Shown here: positions 11,502 through 22,945 of the stretch, piece after piece | Layout: every line of letters begins with the position of its first letter | Position numbering within the stretch: position 1 is the first letter of the stretch | Origin: a bacterium | GTDB lineage: Bacteria; Patescibacteriota; Patescibacteriia; Patescibacteriales; UBA12465 | Direction of reading: 5' to 3' | DNA length: 64,000 bases | Assembly: GCA_030696105.1 (NCBI GenBank) | Contig: JAUYNJ010000004.1 | Span: forward strand, 77,872-141,871 | The notes under the pieces: generated by a model | Told to the model about the DNA's origin: nothing | Database searches by the model: none | What the model saw: only the letters and a program-made list of their open reading frames with translations | Position numbers and translations under genes: made by a program

Positions 11502-11623
11502 ATTGAGTATAAATTTTTATTACTCTAGTATAGCATTTTTATCGTCAAATATTAATATTAAGTAATTATGAGCTAATAATTAATTAATTTTTGTATGTTG
11601 CTATGCTAAATCGGCTCTACAAA

Positions 11624-11908
11624 TAAAAAAGCCATTGAGACTTTAGTAAAATGTTTGGCGCTAAGCTGCTTCCAAGCCTGCTCATTTTACGGTCTCAATG
11701 GCTATAACTGATTCTTTAGTTGAACCGATCAAGCTTGTCTAAAGAATCAGCTTCTATAAAGCACACAGCAATATCTAGAGTTATCTTTACATGGACCTTT
11801 CGTCCACCCTAAATTTTGTCTCCTCGTTCGTCACTACTAAGACTACTGTATTCTTTATAGGGCCACCTCCTTTTTGCGATGGGTTCGGCCAACTAACCAC
11901 CACGGATA
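11624..11908 (-). ncRNA. candidate structured non-coding RNA of about 285 nt, class unknown
   Basis: Lies in a 470-bp ORF-free gap. A perfect TTGACT-17-TAATAT promoter sits upstream. It contains a perfect 12-bp hairpin (11708-11719/11739-11750). It ends in a nested 11+8-bp hairpin (11631-11703) followed by TTTTTTATTT. Confidence 0.4.
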
Positions 11909-14767: not shown

Positions 14768-14882
14768 GACCTTCATCTTTCCCTTAATCGGGCTAGACTT
14801 AGCACCTTCCGGATGGATTATTCCGGGGTTGCTGGCAGGTCACAGGGCTAGTTCCCTCGCTGCGCTCTTTATAAAATGATTC
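14768..14882 (-). promoter_or_regulatory. SAM-I (S-box) riboswitch aptamer
   Basis: The minus strand reads AAGAGCGCAGCGAGGGAACTAGCCCTGTGACCTGCCAGCAACC...GGAAGGTGCTAAGTCTAGC...AAAGATGA. This matches the S-box core (GAGGGA, GCCC, GCAACC, GGTGCTAA) upstream of metK. Confidence 0.85.
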
Positions 14883-15447: not shown

Positions 15448-15828
15448 TTAATTTAAAGCTTTTTGCGTGATATCCTTCAAGTATTTATCTGGATGAAGGA
15501 AAAAATCAATTAGCGCATTCTTTATCGGCTTCATCCCGCAATCAGTGCGATTTAGGGGAGCCAGCACTCCATAGTGAGTGGTGGCGAATTTCAGCTTACC
15601 GTTAACCTCAGCAATCTCTAGAGTTGGGTTAACGTCGCCCCCGCACCATCTTTGTAAATTAAACATTTTGATGCCACCGTCGTAGTCATTAGCCTGACAA
15701 TTTTTGAAATGACCTAGGATGGCTTGTTTAATTTCAGGCCTGGAATCGAGGAATTGGCTTAAAAAATCATTTAGCCAGGTGACCTGTTGGTCCAGGTTTT
15801 TTTCTTCAAACTTTTCCTTTGTTTTCAT
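15448..15828 (-). CDS. hypothetical protein (island orphan)
   Basis: Start at MKTKEKFE, preceded by a TGGAGG SD sequence. It has a TTGACA-17-TATATT promoter and a terminator at 15390-15427. Confidence 0.6.
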   Translation of the reverse strand: MKTKEKFEEKNLDQQVTWLNDFLSQFLDSRPEIKQAILGHFKNCQANDYDGGIKMFNLQRWCGGDVNPTLEIAEVNGKLKFATTHYGVLAPLNRTDCGMKPIKNALIDFFLHPDKYLKDITQKALN

Positions 15829-15995
15829 TGTTAAGCCTCCATTTTTGTTGTTGTTTAAGATAATGAAAAAATATAACACTGGGGATTGTTTTTGTCAATT
15901 GTGGACACCTAATGTTCAGTTAGTAAGCGCAACATGCACAATTTTCTCAATATAAAAAGGCCCGAAATAGGCCTTAATGCTTATCCTATTTAACC

Positions 15996-17105
15996 CTATT
16001 CCCTATTTTCAAACAGTAAAATAGTTTCTTTGAGCTTTGCTTCAGTCGCACATTTGCTCGCTAATACATTATTAAGGGCCACTTCGGGAATATGCATTAA
16101 AGATTTGCCGAGAGCATTTTCTGTAAAGTACATTTTTATGAAATTGCTTTCTTCAAGTAACATCGACTGGCTTTGAACCGTTTTCACCTCGGCGCAATTC
16201 TTCCCCGCTTCGATAGATAAATTATTATAGAAATCAAAATAGTAGCTCTGGGTAAGATTTTGTTTATAATAAAATTTATTCTTTAACAAGATTTTCGATA
16301 CGAGTCCAAATTGATTGTATCTATCGTTATGAACATTAGCTAAAGCTTCTTTAGTGACAAGATATTCAGTTATATAGGGGGCTGAATTCCCTGTTGCTTG
16401 TAGGCTCTCCAATTTTAATTTATACTCTGCCAAAAGCCTTGAGTCAGATGGAATTTTCGAAATGACTTTTTGTAATACATCTAGGCCGGTATTCTTTATC
16501 GCGATGCCGACTAAGTGCGTAATTACTAAGCCTTGTGAATTTTCAATCGCATTACCAACAATAATTGATTTAAAAGCCTCATCTAGCGCTTCTTCGCTTC
16601 TACCACTACTTGCGAGCCAGATTGCCTTAACACCGCTAAGGCGACTTGTTTCCCGCCAACTATTGAGAGGAGTGACCGGCATGTCTAAAGATATCTTCGA
16701 TTGATCATCCGCATCAGGCAACTGAAAAAGACCCTTAGCGGCAGCGTCGGTAAAATGTTGCAGGGCGACTTCATTATCAGCCAATAGTTGCTCTACAGCC
16801 TCTTCGTCCCACTCAGCGCTTGTTAAGTAATCAGATACGAGTTGCTTGCCCTTCGGTACACTATTTGTATTAATTATGTCACGTGTTTTCTCTAAATCAT
16901 AAAACGAGTTATCTTCTACCGGAATGTTAATTGTTTGCAGTTGGAGCTTAGAATCGTCGACTGGAGCAATGTCCCTCCCTTTAATAATGCTTAAAGTGAA
17001 AGGGATGACGAGAACAACAATTACTAACAATACGAAAGCCAAGCCCAAAAACTTAAACGCGCCGCTAGTTATTTGAGCGGCGACTGTCTTATTAATTTTT
17101 TTCAT
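15996..17105 (-). CDS. hypothetical membrane-anchored protein (island orphan)
   Basis: Start at MKKINKTV. One TM segment followed by a soluble domain of about 320 aa. Confidence 0.6.
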   Translation of the reverse strand: MKKINKTVAAQITSGAFKFLGLAFVLLVIVVLVIPFTLSIIKGRDIAPVDDSKLQLQTINIPVEDNSFYDLEKTRDIINTNSVPKGKQLVSDYLTSAEWDEEAVEQLLADNEVALQHFTDAAAKGLFQLPDADDQSKISLDMPVTPLNSWRETSRLSGVKAIWLASSGRSEEALDEAFKSIIVGNAIENSQGLVITHLVGIAIKNTGLDVLQKVISKIPSDSRLLAEYKLKLESLQATGNSAPYITEYLVTKEALANVHNDRYNQFGLVSKILLKNKFYYKQNLTQSYYFDFYNNLSIEAGKNCAEVKTVQSQSMLLEESNFIKMYFTENALGKSLMHIPEVALNNVLASKCATEAKLKETILLFENRE

Positions 17106-17251
17106 AATATTAATATTTGATAATATATTAAATATTATATCAAACATTTTGTAGGCTTAATAGAAATGACGCCATAAGCGAAAAACAAAAGCGACTATTA
17201 TTCATAGCCGGCTTTATCAAATATTCAAATTAAAAACTATATATAATGCGA

Positions 17252-17617
17252 TTAATTGCTGTTAAAAAATTTCTGCAATCTTTGTTTCAGGCTTGAGGAC
17301 TTCGTTTCTTGGCGAGGTTTACTTACTTTGCCAAGGGATGCAAAGATATCCTCAGCGGACCCATTGCTCTTCTCATAATCCGCCTTAATACTAGCAAGAA
17401 TTGCATCGCTTTCTTCCTTTGATTTTTTCTTATCGGCTGCGATGCTTGCAAGAACATTGTCGCTCTCTATTTTTGACTGCCGTTGCGCTGCCTCAACATC
17501 TGATGAAATACTTTCAAAAACTCCGGCGCTGTCATTATTTGATTCTATCTGATCAGCTTTAATGTCTGCAAATAATTCCTTGCTATCATTATTAATTGAA
17601 GGATTCTCCTTGTTCAT
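17252..17617 (-). CDS. hypothetical protein with internal (L/F)ASI(K/A)AD..KS repeats
   Basis: Start at MNKENPS. It carries a repeated motif about 25 aa long. Confidence 0.5.
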   Translation of the reverse strand: MNKENPSINNDSKELFADIKADQIESNNDSAGVFESISSDVEAAQRQSKIESDNVLASIAADKKKSKEESDAILASIKADYEKSNGSAEDIFASLGKVSKPRQETKSSSLKQRLQKFFNSN

Positions 17618-17710
17618 AAAAGTATTAAACTTATTTATTAAACCAACAAGATTATTATAACACAAAATTGGATATTTAGCAAGTAGAGCTAACGTTGATT
17701 AATGTTTTGA

Positions 17711-18262
17711 CTAACCATGACAGCCTAGTATTAAAGCAAAGCTGTTGGTAGAATATTGTTTAAGCATTTCTTTAAAATCTTTTGTCCACTTAATATAGTC
17801 TTTATAATTGGGACTGGACACATCTACATGCATGAAGCCTGTTGGCGGCTGAATTAATTTTAACTCAGGCGTCACAATAGCGTGCGGAAATCTATCATAT
17901 CCGTCAACAGCATTTACTAAATCATCGGTCAGCATTAAATCAAAGATATCATAATCATCGAAGAAATTAAGTTGCTTTAAGGGTTTATCAATTTTTCTCT
18001 GGCATTGCTCCACTAAAGCTTCTTTATAAACGTATGAAAGTTGATAAATTCCCTTCTCATCAACCCCGGTCTCAGTTTGATTTATTTCGGCAAGTTTTTC
18101 GGCAAGCGCTTTATCATCGTGCGGGTCCATATCAAACAATAAAGAAAAATTATTCTTCATTTCGGCTGATAAATATTCCTTTCCTTTGTCATTGATTTTC
18201 TTTCTGATATTATCAAGCACTGCTGTATCTGATTTCATAATGACAATAGCGGTAAATTTCAT
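17711..18262 (-). CDS. hypothetical protein (island orphan)
   Basis: 183-aa ORF with a TTGACA-17-ATAATT promoter preceded by the conserved box. Confidence 0.6.
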   Translation of the reverse strand: MKFTAIVIMKSDTAVLDNIRKKINDKGKEYLSAEMKNNFSLLFDMDPHDDKALAEKLAEINQTETGVDEKGIYQLSYVYKEALVEQCQRKIDKPLKQLNFFDDYDIFDLMLTDDLVNAVDGYDRFPHAIVTPELKLIQPPTGFMHVDVSSPNYKDYIKWTKDFKEMLKQYSTNSFALILGCHG

Positions 18263-18323
18263 ATAGGTATTATATACAACAAAATTATCACTTATGGAGG
18301 TTTTGTGTCAAATGTTATATAGG

Positions 18324-18347
18324 TACATTCAAAACTCGAAGTGCTAC
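18324..18347 (-). promoter_or_regulatory. conserved upstream box, copy 1
   Basis: The minus strand reads GTAGCACTTCGAGTTTTGAATGTA. The GAATG element ends exactly 14 nt before TTGACA. Confidence 0.5.
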
Positions 18348-18734
18348 AAATAAAAAAATGACGCAACTGCAAGGCTGCGCCATTATTCTTGTCTTATACT
18401 CCTCAGTTTTGACGTTCAACCCTTAAACTATAAAGCGGAATTGAACCACGCCTTCAAAACCCTCAGGCATAAACAAGCGAGCATTTTTTTGTGAATTACT
18501 CACAAGGAAATTGCTGGTCCTGGGTCTTGTTGACCCAACTATCGCCTGAAGACCGACGATAAGAGCCCTACTTTGAGTTTGCCCATACCTCATTTCGCTG
18601 ATTGTCTAGTGTTATTATTTTATTTATTCAGGGCAAAGATACCGCTGTATCCTTTTTTGTCTTACCTTTCTTAGGCAAGTGAGGGTAATAACACTCCGTT
18701 GGTTTTGTTTCAATCTTAAAACCAAATAAACAGA

Positions 18735-19076
18735 TTAGTTTGACTCAAAATTGGAAAAATACGCCTTTCCACAAAAAAACCTTTCAAATATACCATATTC
18801 GTAGGATTTTTTGCAGTTTGTAATGAGCCACCAGTAGCAGCTCGCTATTTTTCCGCAACAGAGCAGCTCGCCAATACTATTGGTTCTAGACCAATGTTTC
18901 GAGCACCTGATAACATACTTGCCGTTTTTATCCTCTCCATACCAGTATTCGGAGCTGATCTCTTGGTCTCGATTATAACTAGTATAATCGGCCTTTCTTT
19001 TGGGCTTTTTGCAGCCCTTAAAGCGGCATTTTGTTCCAAGATAGAAATTATCCTGGTTAATTTCTATCCATTTCAT
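18735..19076 (-). CDS. hypothetical Cys/Trp-rich protein (island orphan)
   Basis: 113-aa ORF with a TTGACA-17-TATATT promoter. Confidence 0.5.
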   Translation of the reverse strand: MKWIEINQDNFYLGTKCRFKGCKKPKRKADYTSYNRDQEISSEYWYGEDKNGKYVIRCSKHWSRTNSIGELLCCGKIASCYWWLITNCKKSYEYGIFERFFCGKAYFSNFESN

Positions 19077-19336
19077 TGTTAGTTTTTTAGGGTGAACACA
19101 AAAGACTTATATACAATCTTCTCTGCTCACCCGATAAAACCAGATATCAAAGAACTAAACATTCCTTATAATATAACATATATATACTTCTTTGTCAATG
19201 CTTTATCGTTGTCCTCAAGCGCAAAGTGTGCCGGATAATATATTAATATTATTTTATCAACTAGTTCACAAACCCGACAAATTCATCATATTTAATCGGT
19301 CCTTTTACTGCTATTTTCCATGCTATAATATAAGCT

Positions 19337-19687
19337 ATGTTTCTGCATATTATTACTCAATCTGATTGGTGGATTCATCTCCTAGCAAGTCTATTACTCT
19401 GGGGGGTTTTGTATATTGTTGAAGGAAAAATTTTAGGACGGTCTTTTGGGACTTGGGCGGTTTTAGGGCAATTGCTCGCTGCTAACTTAATTGATCTTGA
19501 TCATTTATTTTCCTGGCCGATTTATCAAGCTGGGCGCTGTAGTCTGAATAATCACTTTCTTCACTCTACTTATTTATTACCAGTTTATGCCATGGGTCTA
19601 CTGACTCGTTTTCGTTATTTTTTCTTGGGAATTATAGTTCACTTTTTAATTGATTATTTGGGTTGTCTTAATTTTTGGTGGTTATAA
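19337..19687 (+). CDS. small membrane protein, possibly YdjM/DUF457-like metal-dependent hydrolase
   Basis: 116 aa with 3-4 TM segments. His/Asp motifs LIDLDHLF and HFLIDYL. Confidence 0.45.
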   Translation: MFLHIITQSDWWIHLLASLLLWGVLYIVEGKILGRSFGTWAVLGQLLAANLIDLDHLFSWPIYQAGRCSLNNHFLHSTYLLPVYAMGLLTRFRYFFLGIIVHFLIDYLGCLNFWWL

Positions 19688-19763
19688 TTATTTTCCTCCG
19701 AAGTATTCTTGTATATTTGTATTTTATTATTTGCTCGTGGCCACGGACGATGTTAGAACTAAT

Positions 19764-20105
19764 TTACAAAAATTTAGCCCATTGATTTAAAACTTGATAA
19801 ATTTCATAAAAGTGTTCTTCTACTCTGAAAGTATGAGGAGCATTTTTAATAACATGCATTTCCTTTTTACCTGGCAACAGATCGAATAATATTTGTTGAT
19901 GTTTAGGAGGCGTTGACGTATCTAATTCTCCAACAATTAAGATTGTGGGCATTATTAATTTATCAACCTTTTTTAACAAATCATATTTTAACCTATCTTC
20001 CATTTCTTGCCATTTGATAGTTTTTTTAATACCACTACTATAACCCATAGTAGTTCGCCAACCAGTTTTTTTCCAGTCTTCTAGCTCTTCTTTAGTATAT
20101 GTAGT
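19764..20105 (-). pseudogene. C-terminal remnant of an alpha/beta-hydrolase
   Basis: PTILIVGELDTSTPP...NAPHTF looks like the Asp/His end of the fold. The frame stays open upstream only to a TGA at 20106-20108, so the nucleophile-containing N-terminal half is absent. Confidence 0.45.
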
Positions 20106-20166
20106 TCACCGAAATACCAATTAAAAAGCCCTTACAATGGCAAGGGCTAGAGAGAGGCTTACGATT

Positions 20167-20895
20167 CTATATTTGCGCAAGGTTTTCTGAAAGTTGTTTA
20201 ATCTTGAGATTGTCTGCAATCTCTTCATTTAACTTCTTTCTTTTGTACTTAACATACTCTTGCACATATTTCTCGCTCCAGGTCTCTTTGTCTACTGAAA
20301 TTGGGGCATAGAAATTTAGCTTAATATAAGTATGTTCTTCATTCTTACCTTCAGGATACACCTCCGGGAATACAATGGTAGCGTCGATGGTCTTTGTAAC
20401 CAAAGAATAAGCTCCTGTAGTCGAAGTGAGTATTTCTAGCACAATGTGAAGTAACGACCAGAAAATCGTTATCAGCACTAAAGTGTGGTTGAAGAGAACC
20501 CCGGAGAATGTTTCCCACATTCCTAGTATCCAAACCAGGCAGATAACAAGACCTCTAAATAGTGATAAATCTGTGCCATTATCTTCTTTTTCGGTCTCAG
20601 GATCTGCGGACTCAATGTCCATGTTGATATCTGCCCCGTACTTGGTCGGGTAGTAAACGGCACCAAAATAGAAATGAGCCGCGTAAACACAGGCGGTCAT
20701 TAGGAACGCGAAGCCTGGTGAGGGCCACAACTCCCTATTAATTAATGCCACCAGAGATCGGCCATTGCTGGCATACTCATTTGGATGAAGCAGCCAGAAG
20801 TAAACCCAGACGAAAATGAATGCTAAGGATATAACCAGGTATATCACTGAATAATTTTGCCTGCGATTAAGCTTGGCTGAATGTTCTTTGTCCAT
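20167..20895 (-). CDS. hypothetical polytopic membrane protein (island orphan)
   Basis: Start set at MDKEHSAK. About 5 TM segments. Module copy A lies upstream. Confidence 0.6.
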   Translation of the reverse strand: MDKEHSAKLNRRQNYSVIYLVISLAFIFVWVYFWLLHPNEYASNGRSLVALINRELWPSPGFAFLMTACVYAAHFYFGAVYYPTKYGADINMDIESADPETEKEDNGTDLSLFRGLVICLVWILGMWETFSGVLFNHTLVLITIFWSLLHIVLEILTSTTGAYSLVTKTIDATIVFPEVYPEGKNEEHTYIKLNFYAPISVDKETWSEKYVQEYVKYKRKKLNEEIADNLKIKQLSENLAQI

Positions 20896-21016
20896 CTTTG
20901 TTTTTTTTGTTTGCTGTTTTTTTGAAAAATTGGATTGATTGCTAAACCTACCTATTAGTAGACTTGGCAATCAATCCAAGAAACAGTACTTGTAAATGAA
21001 CAACAACCATCATTTG

Positions 21017-21150
21017 TATCATAGTATAAGCATTTTGTCAAGCTATTTGAGGGTCCATTCAAACTCGAAGTGCAACGCCCGGTGAAGGATCTAAACCTTA
21101 ACGACGGTATACAAAAAGACCCAATATATATGGGCCTTTTATCTTGGCTC
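21017..21150 (-). repeat. terminator-hairpin-box-promoter module, copy A
   Basis: About 75% identical by eye to 22506-22639 over about 135 bp. It contains a terminator (21118-21136), a hairpin (21084-21100), the box (21055-21076) and a TTGACA element. Confidence 0.7.
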
Positions 21151-21246
21151 TGCGGATTATGTTTACCGAACATTATAATATACCCCATTATTAGAATTAG
21201 CTTAATTAAATCAAAAGGATTGCTGCTTTGAGCAATCCGGTCTTTT

Positions 21247-21435
21247 TTACTTCTTAAGGAGTTGATTTTTTTGTTTAAGCACCCCAGCTATTACACCATC
21301 CGGATCGTCTCCTTTAAGGCCAGCTAACCTTCTTCTGTATCTTAATGCTCTAACGATGGCAACGTGGTTTTGGGGAATATTAGAGTTATTATGCGCTAAA
21401 TTTATTACTTCAGAATAGTTTATCACCAATCTCAT
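21247..21435 (-). CDS. small hypothetical protein, truncated paralog of the 21494-21760 product
   Basis: Shares IPQNHVAIVRALRYRRRLAGL with IPKNHDAIIRAINKKRKELGL in the neighbouring gene. Confidence 0.4.
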   Translation of the reverse strand: MRLVINYSEVINLAHNNSNIPQNHVAIVRALRYRRRLAGLKGDDPDGVIAGVLKQKNQLLKK

Positions 21436-21493
21436 TCGCTATTGTTTTTGAAAAAAGGGAAATCTTTGTGACTTCCCTATAATATTGTCATTT

Positions 21494-21760
21494 CTAAATT
21501 TCATCTTTGCAAGGATTCTCGTATTTTTCCTTTGCCATTTCTTTCTGTGTACGCAAGTGATTGATAACACTAACAGCCCGGGACAGTCCCAGCTCTTTTC
21601 TTTTTTTGTTAATTGCTCTAATAATAGCATCGTGATTTTTTGGTATTATCGTAATCCCAACTAAGGCAAACAATGTCGGGAAATCACACTCAGATGAACC
21701 GTTAATTGCCTCCACTATTGTTTCGTGAAATGGCCGAATTTCTGTTACATTTTTTTTCAT
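21494..21760 (-). CDS. small hypothetical protein
   Basis: 88-aa ORF. Its promoter and 5' UTR are nearly identical to those of the 22042-22455 gene. Confidence 0.55.
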   Translation of the reverse strand: MKKNVTEIRPFHETIVEAINGSSECDFPTLFALVGITIIPKNHDAIIRAINKKRKELGLSRAVSVINHLRTQKEMAKEKYENPCKDEI

Positions 21761-22041
21761 CTCTATTTAATTTTAAAAGTTCAACAATACAATTTTAACT
21801 ATCAAAAAAGCATACCATACAGCATACTTTTTGTCAAGCTCCCCGAACTGAAGCTTATTAGAACCTGTTTGGTGAATAATTAATATATCTAACCTACCAA
21901 CCAACTCGCTATTTATTTAATAATAAAAAGCCCCAACAATAACATTTAAAGTTACCGCTGGGGTTAAAACAAATTTTATTACAACTTCTGAATAAAAAAA
22001 CACCAATGAAATTTGGTGCTGACTGGCATTAAAGCCTCTTT

Positions 22042-22455
22042 CTATTCAAAAAGTTCTTTTAAATCATCCGGATAGAAGGAAACGGAAAGTTTTCTCTGAA
22101 CACCTACAAGCTTCCATAGACAATATATTTTTGTAATATCATCCATTGTTTGATTGTGAATCCTCTTTCTCTCCTTAACAAAGAAATCAGCAATACCTCT
22201 ACCACCCTCTCCGAATGTTTTTACTTCAATTTCCGGATCTATAATTTTCTGTTCAAATATTTCTTCGAAATATTTTTTAAAAATTACCTCACCTGCATTT
22301 AAATATATGCTATAGGCAAGACAAATTTCGTTATAGATTTGGAAAAAGTCTTTTTCGGATGCTTTATTTAGAATTTGCTCGATACTCCCCTCCCATCTCC
22401 AGGGATTATTCACAGTTAAATAACCCAATTTCCTTATGTCTTCTAATTTTTCCAT
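22042..22455 (-). CDS. hypothetical protein (island orphan)
   Basis: 137-aa ORF with a TTGACA-17-TATATT promoter inside module copy B and a strong terminator at 21992-22019. Confidence 0.6.
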   Translation of the reverse strand: MEKLEDIRKLGYLTVNNPWRWEGSIEQILNKASEKDFFQIYNEICLAYSIYLNAGEVIFKKYFEEIFEQKIIDPEIEVKTFGEGGRGIADFFVKERKRIHNQTMDDITKIYCLWKLVGVQRKLSVSFYPDDLKELFE

Positions 22456-22505
22456 TGTTTTCTTTTTTCAATGTTCAACAATAATTTAACTAATCAAAAA
22501 AATAT

Positions 22506-22639
22506 ATCATAAGATATACTTTTTGTCAATCTCCACGAGGGCACATTCAACCTAGAAGTGCAACACCATCATGAGGCTCTAACCCTCATCGAGGGTATAC
22601 AAAAAGACCCAATAAATGGGCCTTATGTCTTGGCTCCCA
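22506..22639 (-). repeat. terminator-hairpin-box-promoter module, copy B (abuts the tRNA-Asn 3' end)
   Basis: Aligns with 21017-21150. It contains a terminator (22606-22622), a hairpin (22571-22589), the box (22542-22564) and a -35 element (22524-22529). Confidence 0.7.
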
Positions 22640-22705
22640 GGGTGGGATTCGAACCCACGACCAATTGGTTAACAGCCAACTGCGCTACCGCTGCGCTACC
22701 TGGGA
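22631..22705 (-). tRNA. tRNA-Asn (GUU), CCA encoded
   Basis: Manual cloverleaf: acceptor stem TCCCAGG/CCTGGGA, D arm GCGC-AGCGGTA-GCGC, anticodon arm GTTGG-CTGTTAA-CCAAT, T arm GTGGG-TTCGAAT-CCCAC, then G-CCA. Confidence 0.93.
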
Positions 22706-22718
22706 ATATTAAATTTTA

Positions 22719-22737
22719 CTAACTGCGCTACCTCCCC
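22719..22737 (-). other. tRNA 5'-fragment-like remnant upstream of tRNA-Asn
   Basis: The minus strand reads GGGGAGGTAGCGCAGTTAG, which looks like an acceptor strand, TA, and a D stem/loop. The 12 nt AACTGCGCTACC (plus strand) also occur inside tRNA-Asn at 22678-22689. Confidence 0.35.
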
Positions 22738-22945
22738 TCCGCCTACTGGCGGACGGCGGAGAATATTCAATTGTAATTTTGAAAAGGCGTGTCCTTTCCA
22801 AAAAAATAAAATATTTCATTGAAATATTTACTAATATCATATCAGATTAGTGCGTTATGTCAACCCTGAGAAAAAGTGGTCAAAACAGGAAAAAAGAGCC
22901 TATTACAGCTCTTTTTTTGCTAATAGATAATAAAGTAATTGTACC

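Follow-up and report, generated by a model that had tools for sequence, protein, structure and literature searches.

The DNA stretch analyzed here, in the following the "window," comprises 64,000 nucleotides (nt) of a Patescibacterial genome (GenBank assembly GCA_030696105.1, contig JAUYNJ010000004.1, positions 77,872 to 141,871). A module of about 135 bp is present twice on its minus strand, 1.5 kb apart and upstream of two unrelated genes. Copy B is located between the tRNA-Asn gene and a gene for a protein of 137 amino acids (aa), and copy A is 5' of a gene for a membrane protein of 242 aa (20167-20895). The conserved box of the module, GTTGCACTTCnAGnTTGAATG, is the right terminal inverted repeat (IRR) of an insertion sequence (IS) of about 1.05 kb from the IS30 family. 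The module as a whole is probably not one functional unit but a composite intergenic stretch that has been duplicated, composed of the tRNA-Asn terminator, an IS30 IRR left behind as a scar, and an ordinary promoter. The features of both copies, in window coordinates, are as follows.

22631 to 22705, minus strand: tRNA-Asn(GTT), CCA encoded (ARAGORN; Rfam RF00005, 73.4 bits).
22505 to 22636, minus strand: module copy B, which fills the space from tRNA-Asn to the point where transcription of the 137-aa gene starts (local alignment with copy A).
22598 to 22624, minus strand: intrinsic terminator of tRNA-Asn in copy B, AAGGCCCA-TTTAT-TGGGTCTT plus a T run, then GTATACC at 22600-22594 (terminator scan; fold).
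22571 to 22589, minus strand: hairpin B, ATGAGG / GTTAGAG / CCTCAT, in the 29-nt segment 22565-22593 (fold of −11.9 kcal/mol, z = −2.07).
22540 to 22564, minus strand: solo IRR of copy B, box GTTGCACTTCTAGGTTGAATG plus TGCC (the identical sequence ends at least 119 IS30-family loci).
22501 to 22529, minus strand: promoter of the 137-aa gene, TTGACA, 17 nt, TG-n-TATATT, with the −35 hexamer starting 14 nt after the box (promoter scan).
21247 to 22455, minus strand: the 1.49-kb segment between the copies with open reading frames (ORFs) of 137 aa (22042-22455), 88 aa (21494-21760), and 62 aa (21247-21435), no Pfam family for any of them.
21017 to 21150, minus strand: module copy A, 5' of the 242-aa membrane-protein gene (MAFFT and local alignment).
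21113 to 21138, minus strand: terminator of copy A, AAGGCCCA-TATATAT-TGGGTCTT plus a T run, then GTATACC at 21112-21106 (fold; terminator scan).
21083 to 21101, minus strand: hairpin A, TTAAGG / TTTAGAT / CCTTCA with one mismatch, in the 29-nt segment 21077-21105 (fold of −6.7 kcal/mol, z = −0.29).
21052 to 21076, minus strand: solo IRR of copy A, GTTGCACTTCGAGTTTGAATG plus GACC (box search; BLAST to IS loci).
21013 to 21041, minus strand: promoter of the 242-aa gene, TTGACA, 17 nt, TG-A-TACAAA, with the −35 hexamer starting 14 nt after the box (promoter motif search).

On the minus strand, local alignment of 21150-21017 with 22636-22505 yielded 77% identity and a score of 118, compared to 21.2 ± 2.4 (maximum, 34) for shuffled sequences. 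The MAFFT alignment of both copies contained 102 identical columns out of 137, and the pair was the top direct repeat (D1) in the repeat search of the window, with a spacing of 1488. An initial annotation of this DNA, made from the sequence alone, had estimated by eye a full-length similarity of about 75%, which agrees with the formal value, far above chance. It was also correct in assigning to both copies the same order of elements (terminator, GTATACC, hairpin, box, 14 nt, TTGACAAAA), in placing the beginning of copy B into the last 6 nt of tRNA-Asn, as confirmed by ARAGORN and Rfam, and in describing the downstream genes as unrelated, because the 137-aa and 242-aa proteins had no relationship when compared. 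An assembly artefact, named there as a possible source of the two copies, is unlikely, given that their identity reaches just 77% and that two recorded contigs contain the flanking proteins of 137 aa and 242 aa beside the same neighbor genes.

The identity between copies A and B was not evenly distributed. It was 93% in the left block of 43 nt, composed of GAGCCAAGA at the tRNA end, the terminator, and GTATACC; 19 of 21 positions in the box; 79% in the promoter; 59% in the hairpin segment; and 50% in the 10-nt spacer between box and promoter. With the latter two segments combined as linkers (56% identity), a Fisher test of box and terminator against them gave P values of 0.008 and 0.0002, respectively. 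The distance from GTATACC to the IRR was exactly 29 nt in both copies, and GAGCCAAGA was identical in all 9 positions, though copy A has no tRNA to serve.

Within the window, the box had exactly 2 matches at up to 3 mismatches, with 0 expected. When one genome per species was scanned with GTTGCACTTCNAGNTTGAATG, the exact box was present at no fewer than 119 loci in many phyla; among the matches listed were Nitrospinota, Nitrospirota, Thermodesulfovibrionales, Holosporales, Saccharibacteria, Komeilibacteria, Paceibacteria, and others. Most of the matches listed were located 30 to 140 nt from contig ends, which is the signature of a multi-copy element breaking assemblies. To the left of the box, these other loci contained a conserved coding region for a transposase C terminus (...NxRPRKxLGxKTPxE...), the frame of which enters the box and stops at the TGA inside GTTTGAATG; to the right, divergence began 4 nt after the box. 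Full copies measured 1039 to 1045 bp between the TTCAAC and GAATG cores and about 1.05 kb overall, and their left end TTCAACAAGTAAGTGCAAC is the mirror image of the right end GTTGCACTTCnAGnTTGAA. The 331-aa ORF of one such copy (L011) scored 256 bits with NCBIfam NF033563 transpos_IS30 (cut-off, 80) and 1.4e-14 with Pfam HTH_38, and the nearest annotated plasmid transposases, e.g., IST3091-like ones, were about 41% identical. The box was assigned to an IS30 IRR because in the other loci it ends elements with an IS30 transposase frame and a matching left end. It is not a regulatory box specific to the module but an IS end at no fewer than 119 loci of many phyla.

No transposase gene was found in the window (best tblastn E value, 3.6), and the boxes in the window are therefore solo IRRs, remnants and not an element. 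About 10 solo IRRs were present among the fetched loci of this IS group. The window contained right-end boxes only, plus one left-end-like box at 15933. The module itself harbored no left IS end at up to 5 mismatches, the best left-end-like match being the IRR, and BLAST similarity of the module to IS copies began just 3 to 8 nt before the box. Two candidates for further IS sequence were rejected: a cryptic left end at GAGCCAAGA, which was unconvincing with 9 to 10 of 19 positions identical by eye, and a decayed transposase 3' end in the 29-nt hairpin segment, for which an IRR-anchored alignment to 43 IS 3' ends resulted in P values of 0.11 (A) and 0.31 (B). In scans of viral contigs, neither the left end nor the combination of right end and TACC had a match. 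A metagenome scan with the pattern GTATACCN{25,35}GTTGCACTTC gave at least 120 matches, essentially all of them by chance because this pattern is too unspecific, with one unrelated IS30-like site among the matches listed. The earlier statement that the window holds no recognizable recombinase was right with respect to transposases and integrases, yet the recombinase responsible for this mobile DNA can be named, an IS30-family DDE transposase.

A generic strong promoter makes up the 3' third of the module. The pattern TTGACAAAA-N11-TGnTAnnnT occurred six times in the window versus 0.07 expected occurrences, so that TTGACAAAA belongs to promoters in general. For the position of the IS end relative to such promoters, the distinct right flanks were grouped by the 4 nt directly following the box. 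In the TACC type, which is that of the Patescibacteria, 26 of 30 distinct sites had TTGACA with up to one mismatch at a distance of precisely 14 nt after the box, 21 of them with the exact hexamer. None of the 32 sites of the TGGG type (Nitrospirota and relatives) and none of the 24 sites of the TGGC type (one metagenome-assembled genome of the Holosporales) had TTGACA at 14 nt, which makes 0 of 56 for the other phyla combined. The consensus of 38 Patescibacterial-type flanks was TACC-N10-TTGACA-N14-TGnTAtaaT, a complete extended −10 promoter in register; N10, the promoter spacer, and the downstream genes varied between these sites, even within one genome. The orientation of the IS right end relative to the promoter was always the same. 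All four copies in the window, including two that are described below, kept the 14-nt spacing, with −35 hexamers at 22529, 21041, 18311, and 15898.

For the Patescibacterial IS30 lineage, distance and orientation relative to the host promoter downstream are constant, and the promoters themselves differ. Targeted insertion is the likely cause of this fixed spacing because selection against gene disruption cannot yield single-base precision. All four full-length copies of the Patescibacterial type had TA on both sides, with exact tips that are undefined and no empty sites for these copies (n = 4). IS30 makes a 2-bp target duplication (PMC9333248), and the flanking TA may represent such a duplication. 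Members of the IS30 family use sequence-specific targets, either hot spots or their own inverted repeats (PMC9333248). A literature search retrieved no report of promoter-directed IS30 insertion or of IS30 in Patescibacteria; as far as could be found, homing of this lineage to promoters is an undescribed variant of IS30 target specificity.

The 5' third of the module is of different origin. The first bases of copy B are the last 6 nt of tRNA-Asn (GAGCCA, 22636-22631), which are two bases of the acceptor stem, the discriminator, and CCA. GAGCCAAGA plus terminator had one outside match by BLAST, the tRNA-Asn 3' end and terminator of a relative (L123; 80% over 44 nt, E = 0.006), and no other; the 5' third is the native tRNA-Asn terminator and therefore host DNA. 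BLAST of the upstream half against 240 fetched loci retrieved nothing but this orthologous tRNA flank. The terminator of copy A is redundant since the 62-aa gene has its own terminator at 21217-21238. A search for tRNA remnants 5' of copies A and C by local and anchored alignment gave no significant match (P = 0.37, 0.89, 0.11), and Rfam at E values of up to 10 reported the real tRNA only and no decayed tRNA by copy A or C.

Some minor observations concern this part of the locus. GTATACC (21106-21112, 22594-22600), kept in A and B, can be read as G-TA-TA-CC, and it may be speculated that this would be the expected leftover after a TA-duplicating IS was lost from a G-TA-CC target. Beyond GTATACC by 10 nt, the hairpin loop (TTTAGA or GTTAGA) might, again speculatively, be a weak −35-like hexamer. 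A weak promoter-like site, TTGATT-16-AATAAT (21187-21214, minus strand), follows the terminator of the 62-aa gene and precedes the orphan one of copy A, and together with the latter it could generate an ORF-less RNA of about 70 nt. A 12-nt duplicate of the tRNA-Asn D-arm (GGTAGCGCAGTT, minus strand; 22721-22732) is located about 16 nt 5' of the tRNA gene, beside a perfect hairpin, TCCGCC-AGTA-GGCGGA (22738-22753); duplicate and hairpin may be the trace of an earlier rearrangement at tRNA-Asn.

Both hairpins form a similar stem with a 7-nt loop. Hairpin B is of moderate stability, and hairpin A is no better than shuffled sequences. Between A and B, 2 of the 6 pairs of the stem were changed on both sides, and 11 of 12 cells pair. 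The covarying hairpin of the initial annotation exists insofar as both copies fold and two paired changes are present, but the covariation carries no statistical weight: with two sequences only there is no statistical power, and 120 of 500 shuffles equaled the observed value. Selection on RNA or DNA structure, which had been suggested from it, is not borne out by two sequences, one of which has a z value of −0.29, and by a segment that is the least conserved part of the module (59%) and missing from copies C and E. Rfam gave nothing at or near threshold in the module. The hairpin region is located between the terminator and the −35 hexamer, and is thus probably untranscribed. Template switching in a quasi-palindrome is an established mutational mechanism that produces apparent compensatory changes in the absence of selection, and it may have produced the paired changes here.

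Relatives with an 87 to 96% identical RpoD kept the gene order upstream of rpoD, and five of them contained entirely different genes after rpoD and tRNA-Asn. At the tRNA-Asn flank of these five relatives, the module and the IRR were absent, and the terminator and a TTGACAAAA promoter were present. None of these five junctions or of the contexts of three homologues of the 137-aa protein contained the module unit. The closest homologue of the 137-aa protein (88% identity, locus L246) possessed the same promoter and 5' untranslated region without an IRR, and its homology to copy B began at the −35 hexamer, so this locus serves as an empty site. Absence of the module from equivalent junctions in related genomes, which according to the initial annotation would refute a conserved module, was hence seen in the five relatives and at the L246 promoter.

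The two copies are not the only junctions of this kind. Two further, more degenerate combinations of inverted repeat and promoter at 18347-18306 (copy E) and 15933-15893 (copy C) had been overlooked, and a piece of copy B has a counterpart upstream of the 88-aa gene.

18306 to 18347, minus strand: copy E, solo IRR GTAGCACTTCGAGTTTTGAATG plus TACC, 10 nt, TTGACA, 5' of a gene for a 183-aa protein (P < 0.002).
15893 to 15975, minus strand: copy C, terminator (15957-15975), degenerate inverted repeat GTTGCGCTTACTAACTGAACA (15933-15913), 14 nt, TTGACA (15898), 5' of a gene for a 126-aa protein (alignment tests).
21752 to 21846, minus strand: promoter and 5' untranslated region of the 88-aa gene, paralogous to those of copy B at 22447-22538 (repeats D9 and D17, score of 78, about 78% identical).

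The IRR of copy E contains one substitution and one inserted T and follows directly after an unrelated terminator (18357-18384); copy E is clearly an independent event. The inverted repeat of copy C is nearer to the left than to the right end of the IS, and its terminator was the third-best match to that of copy B among 44 terminator-like sites in the window (score of 15.5; next best, 11). All four solo inverted repeats are within an AT-rich variable island (15500-22500) between tRNA-Asn and metK, which contains about 12 small ORFs without Pfam families and genes with few or no detectable homologues. Its GC content is 32 to 40%, that of the core 43 to 49%. The intergenic regions of the island are mosaics of paralogous pieces, because the promoter and 5' untranslated region of the 88-aa gene are paralogous to those of copy B. 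The 242-aa protein had no homologue but itself in 5.8 billion clusters, and for the cargo genes, considered as candidate phage or defence genes, PHROGs and PADLOC gave only weak or uninformative matches. The 62-aa and 88-aa ORFs are paralogous (shared motif, IP(Q/K)NH.AI(V/I)RA...(R/K)R.L(A/E)GL; blastp E = 6e-5) and have no Pfam, PHROGs, or PADLOC family. A tandem duplication of the module together with its genes was considered and rejected since the island proteins are unrelated except for this pair.

From these data, the following course of events can be proposed for the composite stretch. Read on the minus strand, each copy consists of the last 6 nt and the terminator of tRNA-Asn as host sequence, the 29-nt linker with a weak hairpin, the solo IRR of about 25 bp, the 10-nt spacer, and a strong but ordinary promoter of the sigma-70 type, with an extended −10 element, that drives the next gene. 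The Patescibacterial IS would insert in one orientation at a fixed distance from a promoter, leading to the sequence IS end, TA, CC, N10, TTGACA. A full IS may formerly have been present at these sites, and later loss of the transposase gene and the left end would have left the IRR as a scar. The scarred tRNA-Asn region would then have been copied again within the AT-rich island downstream of tRNA-Asn, which yielded copy A; copy C would be a third, older relative, and copy E an independent solo IRR at a fourth promoter. For the copying, recombination with the tRNA-Asn flank of a related strain is a possibility; homology would have anchored one side of it and microhomology at GAGCCA the opposite side. 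At present, the terminator should end transcription of tRNA-Asn, being redundant in copy A, and the promoter should drive the downstream gene. The IRR, in turn, is likely to be inert, although an intact IS30 at another site, by providing transposase, could turn it into a target for insertion next to inverted repeats. Of the shared regulatory or junction module attached to different cargo, the junction of mobile DNA and the unrelated cargo would thus persist, but not the dedicated regulatory module.

Several points weigh against this explanation. An intact copy of the IS is not known from this genome, and a former full insertion can only be inferred from its scar. The edges of the repeat are the tRNA 3' end on the left and the −10 element on the right, and no tRNA remnant (P = 0.1 to 0.4), integrase, or left IS end accompanies them. 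An inert scar in a neutral duplicate predicts otherwise than the observed uneven divergence between A and B, with 19 of 21 positions conserved in the box and 93% in the terminator versus 56% in the linkers. The 29-nt distance between GTATACC and IRR is exact in both copies, the stem displays two compensatory changes, and four solo inverted repeats are clustered within 7 kb with the repeat retained in all of them. The last point may be partly a detection bias because only remnants bearing an inverted repeat can be found. An old duplication plus selection on terminator, IRR, and promoter would explain the uneven identity, but not the 9 of 9 identical positions of GAGCCAAGA in copy A. As alternatives, the two copies may have undergone gene conversion, or the IRR may have been converted when IS30 inserted next to inverted repeats (PMC9333248).

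Other explanations need to be considered against this background. The approximately 100 nt from GAGCCAAGA to the IRR tip may be a non-autonomous unit similar to a miniature inverted-repeat transposable element (MITE), moved by an IS30 transposase supplied from elsewhere and landing, like its parent, 12 to 14 nt upstream of promoters. A related terminator plus inverted repeat at three different promoters (A, B, and C), the better conservation of the IRR compared to the linkers, and the promoter of copy B, which is closer to that of the 88-aa gene than to that of copy A, would agree with such mobility. The similarity specific for A and B may effectively stop at the IRR tip, with a spacer beyond it that is just 50% identical, and any segment bounded by IS30 ends can be mobilized by IS30 transposase (PMC9333248). 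This origin is nevertheless unlikely: no left inverted repeat is present, with the IRR as best left-end-like match and 9 to 10 of 19 positions by eye at the left edge; the left 6 nt of copy B are functional tRNA bases, so copy B is no insertion with that boundary; and only two to three copies are found in 64 kb, with an upstream half that is unmatched in the fetched loci save the orthologous tRNA flank. Copies A and B could also be attachment-site junctions (attL and attR) of a small element with the 137-, 88-, and 62-aa genes that entered at the tRNA-Asn 3' end, by an integrase since lost or by homologous or homology-facilitated illegitimate recombination with a related strain's version of the tRNA-Asn flank. 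The repeat begins inside the tRNA 3' end including CCA, both copies bracket as direct repeats a 1.49-kb AT-rich segment with ORFs of few known relatives, 77% identity fits versions from two diverged strains rather than divergence in place, the locus is hypervariable in relatives, and the 12-nt copy of the D-arm just upstream of tRNA-Asn suggests a past rearrangement. On the other hand, cores of attachment sites in tRNAs normally span the T-arm or the anticodon arm, but only 6 nt of the tRNA are shared here, without a tRNA remnant upstream of copy A (P = 0.11 to 0.37), and the repeat extends 129 nt beyond the tRNA, unlike the products of site-specific recombination. Moreover, Pfam analysis of the neighboring ORFs revealed no integrase in the window, and none of the five relatives has a tRNA-Asn flank with an IRR that could be the donor or recipient version, which renders this element doubtful even with all its entry routes taken together.

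A cis-regulatory or RNA element, in which hairpin and box are kept for their structure or as a regulator's binding site, or which gives rise to a small RNA, would explain why box, terminator, and promoter are conserved above the level of the linkers. The two compensatory pairs in the 6-bp stem, with 92% of the cells paired at slide 0 versus 17 to 58% when the partner was slid, would be in agreement, as would the center of the box near −60 from the start site, which may be read as a typical activator position, and the possible RNA of about 70 nt from the weak promoter-like site (21187-21214) to the orphan terminator in copy A. Such an element is quite improbable nevertheless. Its covariation comes from two sequences only and is reached by 120 of 500 shuffles, with a z value of −0.29 for hairpin A; template switching in a quasi-palindrome may mimic it. 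The hairpin segment is the least conserved one (59%), absent from C and E, without an Rfam family match, and located in a probably untranscribed region between terminator and −35 hexamer, and the unit is absent from the orthologous junctions of five relatives and the L246 promoter. Separate IS insertions upstream of each of two similar promoters, without duplication of a unit, would be supported by the two variable box positions, which match different sub-lineages (GAGT as in Komeilibacteria copies, TAGG as in Saccharibacteria copies), by the many promoters that this IS demonstrably targets, and by copy E. However, independent insertion or truncation would give neither 93% identity over the 43 nt left of the linker nor the exact 29-nt distance, and this possibility is far-fetched. 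It is rather unlikely, too, that the solo ends are more than scars, being reusable landing pads of a promoter-homing IS30 branch that recognizes the −35 region, or RNA polymerase bound to it, and inserts 12 to 14 bp upstream in one orientation; such ends would be kept by selection or refreshed by conversion upon insertion next to inverted repeats, and over time unrelated cassettes would be assembled downstream of tRNA-Asn.

The duplicated composite with an IS30 scar may be compared to known systems. With members of the IS30 family (IS30, IS1655, ISApl1, ISAba125, IST3091), for which one transposase of about 300 to 380 aa, terminal repeats of about 20 to 30 bp, and a length of about 1.0 to 1.2 kb are expected, the elements of about 1.05 kb that end in the box share one DDE transposase with an N-terminal helix-turn-helix, the ORF of which continues into the right end. 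The window differs in having solo right ends only, and the transposases linked to the box are about 41% identical to the nearest annotated plasmid ones. Moreover, the Patescibacterial target is asymmetric and at a fixed distance upstream of the −35 site, while the described targets of IS30 are a palindromic hot spot or an inverted repeat. Loss of ISApl1 from the mcr-1 composite transposon Tn6330 reportedly leaves scars with solo inverted repeats. As in such scars, the cargo is flanked by remnants of IS30-family ends, here in direct orientation on both sides, and the transposase gene is lost; unlike them, no composite transposon can be reconstructed, and the repeat includes 45 nt of the host tRNA terminator, which are not duplicated by transposition. 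With MITEs the module shares that it is short, non-coding, has an IS-derived end, and is repeated near genes, but it lacks a second inverted repeat or a clear target duplication, is present in two to three copies, and has in copy B its left edge in a functional tRNA. A variable AT-rich run of unrelated small genes by a tRNA, with a repeated junction between some of them, resembles tRNA-linked islands and integron arrays. In contrast to these, the run lacks an integrase and attC-type sites, a separate promoter and terminator are present for every gene, and the junction is an IS end plus promoter. The cassette-like behavior proposed earlier has therefore no counterpart in integrons. Yeast Ty3 at Pol III start sites, group IIC introns at terminators, and IS1397 and ISPpu9 at repetitive extragenic palindromic sequences also occupy a fixed position at a generic transcription signal, by which damage to genes is avoided. 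This likeness concerns function only: the class of element and the mechanism differ.

The module would be ordinary in itself and an example of how decay of an IS and local duplication create intergenic look-alikes of regulatory modules. In many Patescibacteria, this IS30 lineage keeps one position and orientation upstream of sigma-70 promoters (26 of 30 sites), which would make it a clear example, from bacteria, of a transposable element homing to a generic transcription signal. Homing to promoters could explain how an IS persists in tiny, gene-dense genomes without killing genes, and the fixed spacing suggests contact between the transposase and the promoter or RNA polymerase. In practical terms, the right end of this IS30 should be a free computational promoter marker in an uncultivated phylum. 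The region downstream of tRNA-Asn would be a hot spot of gene turnover in this lineage. If the solo ends were indeed landing pads, the island would be a transposase-driven cassette array, somewhat integron-like but without an integrase, in which cassettes of promoter, gene, and terminator are shuffled.

A few observations in the relatives and in the island stand apart from the module. In locus L121 at 11546-11792, from a relative with a 95% identical RpoD, the anticodon loop of tRNA-Asn is interrupted by a group I intron (Rfam RF00028, 85 bits), which is why ARAGORN missed this gene. The contigs of two other relatives, L122 and L251, break inside tRNA-Asn. The 94-aa ORF at 19764-20048 (minus strand) matches only the C-terminal approximately 80 residues of alpha/beta-hydrolase families (Hydrolase_4, Peptidase_S9) and is, as the partial match suggests, probably a fragment of a gene within the island. 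An S-adenosylmethionine riboswitch (RF00162, 63.6 bits) at 14770-14877 on the minus strand lies 5' of the S-adenosylmethionine synthetase gene, where the island ends on its far side.

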